NCBI RefSeq assembly: GCF_024223415.1
Contig: NZ_CP100500.1
From: Escherichia coli
GTDB lineage: Bacteria > Pseudomonadota > Gammaproteobacteria > Enterobacterales > Enterobacteriaceae
DNA: 64,000 nt
Direction: 5' to 3' (one strand)
Both the position numbers and the translations under genes were made by a program. The notes beneath the pieces were generated by a model. That model was not told where the DNA came from and did no database searches. It worked only from the letters and a program-made list of their open reading frames with translations. Of the stretch, positions 49,083 to 55,817 are shown in pieces. Each line of letters begins with the position of its first letter. Positions within the stretch are counted from its first letter, which is position 1.

Positions 49083-49767
49083 TTAAATGCCGAGTGGGAA
49101 AATATCATGGCCTTGTTCTTGCCAACTGGTGAGTTGCTGCTGTTGGGCGGAGGTTCGATTTTCACCGCACCACACCAGCAATGTACGGCCTTCGAATAGT
49201 TCAGGGCGTAGTTGATTGAGCGAGTGGGCGAGGACATCAATGCGCCATCCTTGTTGACTGGCAATCCAGCCCTCCAGCCACAGACGGGTGGTATCCTGAA
49301 TATTCCAGCCAACCACCAGCGCATCTTTACCCTGTTTTTTACGTGCCGAAGCCAGACAAATGGCGATGTAGTTGATCAGTACGCCGTCGAGGATCGCCAG
49401 CAGCGCCTGGAGAGTCGGTTGTTGGCACTGAAGCCGTCGGCGCAGAGGAATAAACAGATGTGTGGTGAGTGTCTGGGCGGGGTAATCCTGACCGCGCTCT
49501 TTGATCCACGTTCGCAGGCTATGTAGATTGCCGCTTTGCAGGTAAGTCAGTAATGTTTCTTGCTGATCGCGCCAGCCGTTCTGCACATCAACATTTTCAT
49601 TACTGAGCAGCATTTTAACTTTGCTGACCTGCACGCCGTTGTCGATCCAGCGTTTGATCTCGCGGATCCGGTCAATATCGGCATCGTTGAACAGCCGATG
49701 ACCGCCGTCTGTCCGTTGCGGTTTCAGCAATCCGTAACGCCTCTGCCACGCGCGTAACGTGACAGGG
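49083..49767 (-). pseudogene. mlrA: MerR-family curli regulator MlrA (YehV), 5'-truncated by prophage insertion
   Basis: Minus-strand translation matches MlrA from ...PVTLRAWQRRYGLLKPQRTDGGHRLFNDADIDRIREIKRW... to the native C-terminus; the first ~16 codons (MALYTIGEVALLCDIN, part of the HTH) are replaced by phage DNA. Confidence 0.85.
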
Positions 49768-49804: not shown

Positions 49805-51091
49805 TTACCCCACTTTCTTATGGGGCATACATGGGACACTTTCAGATAGTCTTTTGTTAAGGAGTTCTATCTGTTCGTGATTGTTGTCTTTCATCCATGC
49901 TCCGTAAACATTGAATACCATTTGTGCGTTTGTGTGGCCCATCTGGCTTGCGATAAAACTAGGATTAGCTCCAGCGGCAAGTGACCAGCATGCATAAGTA
50001 TGCCTGGATTGGTACGATTTTCTGTGTCTCAGACCTGCGCGTTTTAAGATACTTGTCCATGACTCCCTGATGGAGTCAACCTTATAGTGCGGTCCGGAAA
50101 ACTGCCGCTGTTTTATTACCTGAGGACTAAAAACAAAAGTGCATTTATGCACAGTACTTCTCCCATATTCCCTCTGCTTTACCTCTACAGAATGTTGCTT
50201 TCCAAGCATGGTCATTTCCGCCTGACTTTTAAGAGCATCAATAGCTGGTTGAACCAGATGAATTGTCCTTCCGGTGCCAGCATCGGTTTTTGGTGGAGTG
50301 AATTCGCCAAGTTTTGTATAATTCCTACGGATGGTTATAGTCCTTGCTTTAAGGTCTATATCTTCCCATGCCAGCGATACCAACTCCCCGTGACGAATAC
50401 CCGTGTATACAGCGAGAATCCACAGGTTTTTTGTTTGTTGATGACGGCAAGCCTCAATAAAACGAATAAATTCGTCACGGGTGAGAGGATCTGGTTTTAC
50501 CTTGGACTTTTTTAAGGGAGCCAGACCGTTAAATGGGTTTCCTGAGGTATAACCATTATCTGTTGCAAATTGAAACATTCCAGCTATGGTTGTCATATAG
50601 TAGTTTACCGTGACCACTGAGCGCCCTTTTATGGAAGAAGTCTTTCCATTAGAAAGCTTTTGGTAACCGGTCAACAAATCTCTCCTTACGAAAAGTAAAT
50701 CCTCTTTTGTTATGGATGAAACCAGTTTTTTTTCACCTAACATTGGTAACATGTTTTTAATTACTGACTGGTAACGGTTAAGTGCATTCGCACAAATCTC
50801 AATTTTCTTAAGGTCCAACCATTTTTCCGAAAGTGCCTTAACGGTTATCTCTCTTTTTCCCAGACCAAAGTGTTTCAGGTTAGGGGAATTAGGGAACTGC
50901 GCGGCGTAGTCGAAACTCCCCATTCTGATTGCAAAACAAACGGAAGTGCGAAGTTCACCTGCGATCTTCCGGTTTTTGGCGGTGTCAGGAACACCGAGGT
51001 TTTCTCTGACACGTTTGCCATTATAGTGAAACCATATACGGAGTGATCCTCCATGGTTTTCAACGCCTGTCGGGTATGATACGTTACTCAT
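49805..51091 (-). CDS. int: Phage tyrosine integrase
   Basis: 428-aa ORF; C-terminal catalytic-domain residues (RHTYACW, GHTNAQMVFNVY); transcribed toward the att junction. Confidence 0.9.
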   Translation of the reverse strand: MSNVSYPTGVENHGGSLRIWFHYNGKRVRENLGVPDTAKNRKIAGELRTSVCFAIRMGSFDYAAQFPNSPNLKHFGLGKREITVKALSEKWLDLKKIEICANALNRYQSVIKNMLPMLGEKKLVSSITKEDLLFVRRDLLTGYQKLSNGKTSSIKGRSVVTVNYYMTTIAGMFQFATDNGYTSGNPFNGLAPLKKSKVKPDPLTRDEFIRFIEACRHQQTKNLWILAVYTGIRHGELVSLAWEDIDLKARTITIRRNYTKLGEFTPPKTDAGTGRTIHLVQPAIDALKSQAEMTMLGKQHSVEVKQREYGRSTVHKCTFVFSPQVIKQRQFSGPHYKVDSIRESWTSILKRAGLRHRKSYQSRHTYACWSLAAGANPSFIASQMGHTNAQMVFNVYGAWMKDNNHEQIELLNKRLSESVPCMPHKKVG

Positions 51092-53948: not shown

Positions 53949-54776
53949 TTACTTAACCTGAATAAATGGTGTGTTGGCACCGCTGGTCATGTATTGCGGC
54001 AGTGTACCGTTCCACTTGTTGATGGCTTCCAGCTCCATAACGTTTGGGTTCTGGCGCAGAGCTTCACCGCGTAAACGAATAGCATCGGCTTCGGCCTGGG
54101 CTTTTGTGCGAATCGCATCTGCCTGTCCGGCAGCTTCCGCGCGCAACATGTTGGCTTCCGCTTCGCGCTGTTTTACTTCCTGCTCGCGTTGCAGGGTTTT
54201 CTGGTTGGCCGTGACTTTGGCATTAATGCTGTCGATAACGGTTGGCGGGTACTCCGGCTTACCCACATATGAGAGGCTCATTACCTGAATACCGATAGGT
54301 GTCATCTCTGCCTGAATGTCTTTAAGAGCTTCATCCAGCAGCTCAGACTTGCCGCCGTCGATAAATTTGTCAGTGGTCATTTTGCTGGCCAGTCGGTTGA
54401 GTGCGTCGGCGATCTTCTGGCGCAGGTCAGTGTCGGTAATGTCATCCACGCCTTTGCGGTAGGTCTGAAACACCGTGGTAACTTTGGATGGATCAACTTT
54501 GTAGGCCACGCCAATGTGATAGCCGATGGTTGTACCGTCACTCATCTGGAAACTGAACGGTTCATCGTAGGTCTTCATTTGTTTGAAGGTGGGGAAGATA
54601 TAAACTTCAGTATTCCAGCCAGTCCAGTAGCGACCAACACCGACCACCTCACCGACGCCTTTGTCGTCGCCCAGTTTATTTACCTTGATGCCAACATTAC
54701 CTGGTTCAACGCGATCGCAACCGACAAGGCCAATAGTCGGCAGAACAATGGCTAAAGCAAAAATAATTTTTTTCAT
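53949..54776 (-). CDS. SPFH/band-7 (prohibitin/flotillin-like) domain lipoprotein
   Basis: 275-aa ORF; lipoprotein signal MKKIIFALAIVLPTIGLVGC; SPFH-like core followed by an Ala/Glu/Arg/Gln-rich coiled-coil tail (EQEVKQREAEANMLRAEAAGQADAIRTKAQAEADAIRLRGEALRQ). Confidence 0.7.
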   Translation of the reverse strand: MKKIIFALAIVLPTIGLVGCDRVEPGNVGIKVNKLGDDKGVGEVVGVGRYWTGWNTEVYIFPTFKQMKTYDEPFSFQMSDGTTIGYHIGVAYKVDPSKVTTVFQTYRKGVDDITDTDLRQKIADALNRLASKMTTDKFIDGGKSELLDEALKDIQAEMTPIGIQVMSLSYVGKPEYPPTVIDSINAKVTANQKTLQREQEVKQREAEANMLRAEAAGQADAIRTKAQAEADAIRLRGEALRQNPNVMELEAINKWNGTLPQYMTSGANTPFIQVK

Positions 54777-55021: not shown

Positions 55022-55412
55022 TCAGAATGGTTTTGTTGCCATCAGTTCGTAATATCCGGCGCTCCATGTGTCATATTTTCTGAACCATTTTTCTGTATAC
55101 TGTTTCCTGGCGATGAGTCTGCGCAGTCGTCTGATTGTTCGCTGGTGTGCGCGGGTATACTCTGTGGTTGATTCTCCACGTTTCCATATCTCATTCCTGT
55201 TGAAGATAAAACGCTTGTCAGGATAGCGTTGTCGGAATCCTGAACGTTCAAAAGCGCGGGTGGTCATAAAGAATGCCAGGTAACGAATTGCCGTTTTTCG
55301 AGTGAGGCATTTTTTTTGTTCTTCCGTGGCGTGTTACAAAAAATAACGGGCCGACGGGTGTATCATGTTTCTGTAATGCCTGGTCAATGGCGCTGGCGGT
55401 GCGGTTGTCGAT
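55022..55412 (-). pseudogene. Hypothetical phage gene split by a frameshift at a T8/A8 homopolymer
   Basis: A 57-aa ORF (MIDNRTASAIDQALQKHDTPVGPLFFVTRHGRTKK...) and the 81-aa track ORF 55022..55267 become one ~130-aa ORF if the A8 run (plus-strand T8 at ~55309-55316) is shortened by 1 nt. Confidence 0.4.
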
Positions 55413-55601
55413 CATTTCTTTATTTCTCCCGAATAACGTTCATGACTCATTACTTCCCAGTTCCGGCCGTCGTCTTTCGATAACAGCCGCCAGCGACGGT
55501 TAACCTTCAGACTGAGATATCCGGTGCGCTGTATCCGATGCGGAAATATCCGTCGGCATCGGTACAACAACAGGACCTGCAATGCCTGCCGGTGGATCCG
55601 C

Positions 55602-55817
55602 TCAGGAATGCGTGTTGCTGTTAATGCCACCGGTTTCCTCCTGAGCAGGTGCTGTTATCTGATACCCCGCTCTTTCTGCCAGCCGTATGAATGTATCCAT
55701 GCTGGCAATCAGCTCGCCATCGCGGACTTTGCAGACACCTGTGACTTGGCCATTTTCAATTGTCATAACGATCTGCACTTTTTCGCGCACAACAGATACA
55801 GGGGATAAATTAGCCAT
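55602..55817 (-). CDS. Hypothetical phage protein
   Basis: 71-aa ORF, 1-nt overlap with the upstream ORF. Confidence 0.45.
   Translation of the reverse strand: MANLSPVSVVREKVQIVMTIENGQVTGVCKVRDGELIASMDTFIRLAERAGYQITAPAQEETGGINSNTHS

Follow-up and report, generated by a model that had tools for sequence, protein, structure and literature searches.

A prophage gene for a protein of 130 amino acids was found to be split into two overlapping reading frames at a run of eight adenines (A8) in Escherichia coli. The analysis covered a stretch of 64,000 nucleotides (contig NZ_CP100500.1), referred to below as the window. Very probably the gene carries a genuine, heritable +1 mutation, from A7 to A8, which arose by replication slippage at a recurrently affected hot spot and made it a pseudogene in this strain. 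We infer replication slippage as the cause, as well as the loss of function and the dispensability of the gene. The split gene belongs to a decaying lambdoid prophage that is integrated in mlrA, and it is a slippage pseudogene of an ordinary kind and of recent origin.

Organisation of the split gene

The split gene consists of the following parts, all on the minus strand of the window.

55022..55415, minus strand: whole frameshifted gene, a pseudogene allele of a PHROG 1886 protein (393 nt and 130 aa after repair)
55248..55415, minus strand: ORF1, 55 aa, ATG start; residues 1-35 are native, and the next 20 (MPHSKNGNSLPGILYDHPRF) are read out of frame up to TGA
55022..55267, minus strand: ORF2, 81 aa, ATG start; native residues 50-130, beginning at the invariant internal Met50
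55310..55317, minus strand: A8 run of the coding strand, which reads T8 on the plus strand; the +1 insertion occurred here

The original prediction of two overlapping minus-strand ORFs (55415..55248, 55 aa, and 55267..55022, 81 aa) that would fuse to a basic protein of about 130 aa if the A8 run were one base shorter proved correct. Removal of one A gave a continuous protein of 130 aa with a pI of 10.96 and 30 K+R residues versus 11 D+E residues. The run itself, predicted at about 55309-55316, is real and lies one base further on, at 55310-55317, while the predicted end of the gene at 55412 fell 3 nt short of the true end at 55415. Residues 1-129 of the repaired protein matched the PHROG 1886 profile at 1-130/135 with an E value of 1.6e-59, a full-length family match. 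When searched separately, the two fragments matched this profile in adjoining regions, at 1-36 (E=1.5e-13) and at 50-130 (E=3.3e-29). Because of the end-to-end match, the adjoining matches of the fragments and the occurrence of the exact intact protein (P0012) in other genomes, the fusion of both ORFs into one protein is well beyond chance.

The start codon of ORF1 (55415-55413) overlaps the stop codon of the upstream gene (ATGA), and a GGGAG Shine-Dalgarno sequence is located upstream of it. ORF2 starts 17 nt upstream of the ORF1 stop codon.

A single ORF as the ancestral state

The ancestral organisation is one gene. In the related complete E. coli genomes that were inspected the locus contains an intact CDS of 393 nt (WP_000566776.1), annotated as 'hypothetical protein', so that the search for an intact ORF in related prophages, which had been proposed as a check, gave a positive result. 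The exact repaired protein P0012 was found intact in 3758 blocks of a collection of 15 billion proteins. An 81-nt query centred on the A run matched 104 complete E. coli genomes, none of which was identical to the window tract; among the matches listed (30), all span 80 nt, i.e., they have A7.

Homologues formed 206 clusters across the Enterobacteriaceae, all of them single ORFs of 130-146 aa, with members of about 60% identity in Salmonella, Citrobacter, Enterobacter, Klebsiella, Kosakonia and others. All 31 diverse homologues that were aligned were likewise single ORFs. In an alignment of the homologues (n=32) the frameshift site (K34, K35, C36) is located inside the most conserved block, HGRxKKCFSRDTAIRYLAFFM. 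The DNA of distant homologues from Salmonella, Enterobacter and Citrobacter contains an in-frame A6 (CAT/ATC/ACT AAA AAA TGC), and the A7 relatives all read GAAGAAC-A7-TGCC. The E. coli run is A7 and not A6 because the Thr codon preceding AAA AAA is ACA, and A7 is the ancestral E. coli state, arising from ACA AAA AAA, which encodes T33-K34-K35.

Slippage from A7 to A8 within codons 33-35 would shift the ribosomes to the +2 frame (equivalent to -1) after Lys35. Translation would then yield a fragment of 55 aa that ends at TGA, and the conserved core (K34-K35-C36 ... LAFFM50) as well as the C-terminal Arg-rich helix would be lost. On account of this loss the gene is regarded as a pseudogene in the window lineage. 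The event is recent there, since the downstream frame is still identical to that of the commonest intact protein.

Authenticity of the additional adenine

The exact truncated product of 55 aa (P0001) was present on 62 contigs in 72 blocks of the protein collection. A variant product (P0003), which differs by one SNP that is synonymous in the repaired native frame, was present on 81 contigs in 109 blocks, and nine more variants of the truncated product were found, one of them from Shigella boydii ATCC 9905. The A8 products came from Logan short-read assemblies, ENA metagenomes and NCBI genomes, most of them short-read, and A8 was present in the DNA of all 19 loci that were fetched. Logan contig ERR3437277_80 (L004) gave a gapless alignment of 12,168 nt with the window prophage, in which 7 positions differed, and it carries both A8 and the G6 run of rusA described below. 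The NCBI contig UDHK01000011.1 was identical to the window over 7,096 nt. On the chromosomal side, 24,501 nt of the window gave a single ungapped alignment of 100.0% with NZ_CP110978.1, and the three A7/T7 runs within these 24.5 kb showed no indel. Because of this ungapped alignment the assembly is considered not to be riddled with homopolymer errors.

A second homopolymer frameshift was observed in rusA (63104-63476, plus strand), which is split into ORFs of 35 aa and 104 aa, with G6 at 63190-63195. Compared with strain GF60, the only near-identical complete genome, rusA of the window has one extra G (376 vs 377 nt). G6 recurs in 29 blocks of independent assemblies, including the ERR3437277 contig with A8, and since it is common to independent assemblies, the rusA frameshift is a real inherited mutation and not an error.

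A sequencing or assembly error in the homopolymer, which would mean that the genome truly has A7 and the gene is intact, is extremely improbable. A single-base change within a homopolymer, a second such frameshift 8 kb away in rusA, and the lack of A8 among the RefSeq complete E. coli genomes (104 tract matches, none identical to the window) speak in favour of such an error. However, the identical A8 occurs on the 62 contigs from independent, mostly short-read assemblies, the prophage contig that is gapless against the window over 12.2 kb carries A8 together with the rusA G6, and the adjoining 24.5 kb of chromosome are free of indels against a close relative, the three A7/T7 runs included. An artefact would be confined to one assembly and accompanied by other homopolymer indels against near-identical references, and neither was the case. 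Thus, of the two explanations given in the original prediction, systematic homopolymer errors failed, as both A8 and the rusA G6 recur in independent short-read assemblies and the chromosomal 24.5 kb are indel-free, while a slippage-prone tract was the right alternative, A8 and A6 recurring on several haplotypes. The independently assembled DNA shows the A8 allele to be real and recurrent. Both frameshifts, A8 and rusA G6, are real mutations that have been inherited within this prophage lineage. The two genes call for annotation as pseudogenes, and the frameshifts should neither be 'corrected' nor be taken as signs of a poor assembly. The main value of the result lies in annotation and quality control, and it opens no long-standing question.

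Recurrent changes in the length of the run

After normalisation of the run length, the 393-nt gene was compared among 71 loci, which were obtained from exact-product look-ups, RefSeq genomes and a pattern scan of IMG/VR. The IMG/VR scan by itself gave 36 loci with A7 and 1 locus with A8 (n=37). Among the sampled loci, which were from E. coli and Shigella prophages, A8 occurred on at least five gene haplotypes and A6 on at least four. The haplotypes (114C,183G,217G) and (114C,190C,217G) were each found with A6, A7 and A8 in a 393-nt gene that was otherwise identical. The SNP at position 114 is only 8 nt away from the run, and its alleles were seen with the run lengths in all four combinations. 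Two loci, L018 with A8 and L069 with A7, differed by 2 mismatches and the run length over 4,603 nt; the flanks of both were several percent different from those of the window. The A6 products were first predicted and then matched by exact look-up, which gave a cluster of 5 members on 13 contigs, and the DNA agreed. These sequences are most simply read as the outcome of slippage that took place repeatedly and independently at a single hot spot, by +1 as well as by -1.

An exact A7 twin of the window haplotype (114T,141A) was not found at the DNA level in the sampled loci, P0012 being a twin at the protein level only. H41 and H42 were considered as A7 twins of the window haplotype and rejected, as both have the (190C,217G,258C) haplotype. 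Exact look-ups of hypothetical A9, A10 and A4 products, which covered two haplotypes only, found none. At a second A7 run, located at the start of the SPFH gene (54767-54773), 16 loci matched the flank pattern and all had A7, a small number that gives this comparison low power.

In the A6 alleles (L081, L083 and L085-L087) the TGA of a 49-aa ORF overlaps the ATG of the 81-aa ORF (ATGA), and both pieces are predicted by gene callers, unlike those of the A8 alleles. A8 of the P0003 type was found in prophage remnants riddled with IS1/IS3 in L012-L014 (GCA_900450175.1, GCA_900448845.1 and CP026875.1), which appear to be Shigella-like genomes. Most of the 109 blocks of P0003 are made up of contigs of 2-5 kb, which suggests clonal inheritance of this pseudogene in Shigella-like genomes. 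The N-terminal 'TASAI' (window region 55388-55400) varies in the relatives P0004 and P0009, which have TASASAI and TASASASAI. This variation is a 6-nt repeat expansion and represents a second polymorphism of the slippage type within the same gene.

The A7 run is a small mutational hot spot in an uncharacterised prophage gene that is distributed throughout the Enterobacteriaceae, and it has been altered repeatedly in both directions. Since the tract has been altered independently so many times, the sequences suggest that the PHROG 1886 gene may be dispensable, or mildly costly, to lysogens; repeated expansion to A8 (at least five times) and contraction to A6 (at least four times) would fit such a gene.

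Contingency-type phase variation, in which the A6/A7/A8 tract would be a selected and reversible ON/OFF switch of the prophage gene, was considered as well and is very unlikely. ON and OFF lengths occur on otherwise identical backgrounds, as is expected of a phase-variable gene, with A6, A7 and A8 all found on the same haplotypes. The tract is located early in the ORF (codons 33-35), and the E. coli run (A7, by way of the ACA Thr codon) is longer than that of other genera (A6). Nevertheless, A7 is short in comparison with known contingency tracts, so that only slow switching would be expected. The OFF alleles gain secondary null mutations, which is one-way decay and not reversible switching, and they amount to a few percent only. 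As the KK pair is conserved in the protein, the run is explained by a preference for the Lys codon AAA. The secondary null mutations in the A8 lineages also argue against a routine reversion of A8. A broader version has an equally slim chance of being right: A7 would be a selected mutational switch by which the lysogen turns a costly early-left gene off, and perhaps on, or A8 would be partly active through a +1 slip of tRNA-Lys. As a switch, the tract would have come about when E. coli prophages lengthened the ancestral A6 to A7 through the ACA codon.

Recoding and the two reading frames

Under programmed recoding, A8 would be a designed slippery site, and ribosomal slippage (+1/-2) or transcriptional slippage there would give a full-length product in addition to the short one. 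Runs of A are a classic type of slippery sequence, the restoration of ORFs at A/T runs has been documented (Baranov et al. 2005, PMC1088944), and the A8 arrangement recurs across many genomes; moreover, the exact wild-type protein would be restored if the ribosome slipped by +1 on the last Lys codon. The distribution of the alleles does not agree with such a design. Only a minority of a few percent of the alleles have the two-ORF layout, which was found in 72 and 109 blocks versus 3758 blocks for one intact variant and in 1 of the 37 IMG/VR loci. The distant homologues are all single ORFs with A6, so that neither the two-ORF layout nor the slippery tract is conserved among the homologues, and A8 alleles have exact A7 twins.

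The downstream frame of the A8 alleles decays. In six loci (L006-L011) it is interrupted by the stop codon Q91* (271C>T), and in L012 it is shifted a second time near nt 340. Because of these mutations the downstream frame is considered not to be under selection once the run has slipped; the purifying selection that recoding would impose on it was not seen. Elements that could stimulate recoding were not found either. The 95 nt following the run form no unusual RNA structure (-18.9 kcal/mol, z=-1.35, with 21 of 200 shuffles folding as well), no GGAGG-like (Shine-Dalgarno-like) motif precedes the run, and the codon after it is an ordinary AUG, neither hungry nor a stop.

The length of the run and the direction of the shift are also unfavourable. 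In many bacteria selection against A/T runs is evident from about 9 nt (PMC1088944), and about A11 is needed for robust sliding of ribosomes (PMC4363877); A8 is below both. Rescue of a +1 allele requires -1 or +2 in the RNA, but in A/T runs E. coli RNA polymerase errs mainly by inserting one base and rarely deletes bases from a run (PMC5574713). Programmed recoding is therefore regarded as highly improbable, and the original prediction had already ranked it as less likely, a view in line with the single-ORF homologues, the A7 twins and the decay of the frame. It is possible that A8 alleles still produce the full-length protein at a low level, either by a +1 slip of tRNA-Lys on AAA-AAA-A, which would give the exact wild-type protein, or by slippage of RNA polymerase.

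The view that the ORFs of 55 aa and 81 aa each represent a functional gene is almost certainly wrong. Related prophages carry the same two ORFs with A8, and ORF2 begins at an invariant Met 17 nt before the stop codon of ORF1, so that termination-reinitiation is conceivable. However, the out-of-frame tail of ORF1 has no homologues except in frameshifted alleles, and ORF1 retains only native residues 1-35, of which residues 1-24 were modelled at a pLDDT below 50. The sequence before the ATG of ORF2 (GGCATTCTTT-ATG) contains no Shine-Dalgarno-like sequence, and Q91* truncates ORF2 in L006-L011. Gene callers seldom predict ORF2 in A8 contigs: the gene tables of loci L004-L021 contain no call for it, and its product P0013 was present on only 2 contigs of the 15-billion-protein collection. 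Related phages with two separate ORFs and the same A8 tract, which had been named in advance as a sign of a genuine gene pair, thus do exist. They do not indicate such a pair, because theirs is a minority allele with exact A7 (and A6) twins and with later inactivating mutations.

The prophage, the gene neighbourhood and the intact protein

From position 1 to about 49.7 kb the window consists of E. coli chromosome (mglBAC ... osmF-yehYXW-yohO-mlrA). The lambdoid prophage extends from about 49.8 kb onward and is inserted in mlrA (yehV), the attachment site that Stx1-type phages use in O157:H7. The features that border the prophage or lie next to the split gene are as follows.

49083..49730, minus strand: MlrA ORF, 215 aa, adjoining the integrase and left by the prophage insertion
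49805..51091, minus strand: integrase of the prophage, 428 aa
55412..55630, minus strand: upstream neighbour of the PHROG 1886 gene, 72 aa, ParE_like toxin domain (PF24732, E=3.3e-17, 62.7 bits vs cutoff 24.4)
55602-55817, minus strand: 71-aa ORF preceding the ParE_like gene, with a 29-nt overlap with the ParE_like ORF
58868-59500, plus strand: NUMOD4/HNH_3 (homing-endonuclease-like) gene, 210 aa, directly upstream of a DEAD-box helicase gene

The MlrA remnants in related loci have 215, 228 or 233 aa. On the coding strand of the integrase gene there is an in-frame A8 (50726-50733, T8 when read on the plus strand), which could be used as a comparator tract. The gene is intact, and its product of 428 aa is as long as that of related loci. 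In place of the NUMOD4/HNH_3 gene, related prophages have an unrelated ORF of 122-124 aa or nothing.

The PHROG 1886 gene is located in the early-left operon of the prophage. From the repressor side the order is HTH genes, two 63-aa genes, a 119-aa gene, the 71-aa gene and the 72-aa ParE_like gene, followed by the PHROG 1886 gene, a 62-aa membrane protein, an SPFH protein, an ORF6N protein and, further along, the integrase. The gene holds the same place in the early-left operon of Salmonella, Enterobacter and Citrobacter prophages, and it is always preceded by a conserved gene of 118-135 aa and then a gene of 65-79 aa, with stop/start overlap. The ParE_like ORF, which PGAP names inconsistently as 'ParE family toxin-like' or 'hypothetical', overlaps the PHROG 1886 gene by 4 nt (ATGA). 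It is present in the E. coli and Enterobacter versions of the module and absent from those of Salmonella and Citrobacter, in which a different protein of 65-76 aa immediately precedes the PHROG 1886 gene. A toxin-antitoxin pair of the ParE type with the 130-aa protein was rejected, as the genes do not co-occur across the homologues (Salmonella, Citrobacter). The ParE_like gene is context and not an obligate partner.

PHROG 1886 is annotated as of unknown function. Scans of the repaired protein with Pfam, NCBIfam and PADLOC gave no match, a sequence-profile search of the PDB gave nothing, and a fold search gave no informative match. Neither the domain scans nor the fold search pointed to an antitoxin. 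The INPHARED phage collection contained no match by megablast, and a literature search for the RefSeq accessions, PHROG 1886 and PF24732 found no papers. The intact protein has a long Arg-rich helix (residues 84-116). This helix and the pI of 10.96 are the only basis for the tentative suggestion that the product might be a small basic accessory protein that binds nucleic acids.

Comparison with known systems

Within the PHROG 1886 family, the member encoded in the window is frameshifted. The split gene resembles cases in which transcriptional slippage restores an ORF (PMC1088944; Thermus dnaX, Shigella mxiE, IS elements) in that an A run is located at the junction of overlapping ORFs and the fusion gives a homologous full-length protein. 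It differs from them in the length of the run, which is 8 nt and not at least 9 nt, and in the change needed in the RNA, which is -1 or +2, while the E. coli polymerase mostly adds one base (PMC5574713). In addition, the two-ORF layout is not conserved here and the downstream frame decays.

With the contingency loci of Neisseria, Haemophilus and Campylobacter, which are switched by homopolymers, the gene shares an A6/A7/A8 polymorphism that toggles the ORF on identical backgrounds. In contrast to these loci, the tract is short, the OFF alleles are rare and decay further, and two conserved AAA codons for Lys account for the run; nothing indicates that the switch is reversible or that the tract has been selected for.

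The slippage pseudogenes of prophages and of Shigella and E. coli, known as 'authentic frameshifts', agree with the split gene in every respect that was compared. A single-base change in a mononucleotide run splits a conserved ORF, close relatives have intact orthologues, some lineages show further decay by a nonsense codon or a second frameshift, and carriage is clonal in IS-rich, Shigella-like contexts. No essential difference from these pseudogenes was found, and the distinguishing mark of the present gene is its notable homoplasy, with at least five gains and at least four losses of one A on the haplotypes sampled.
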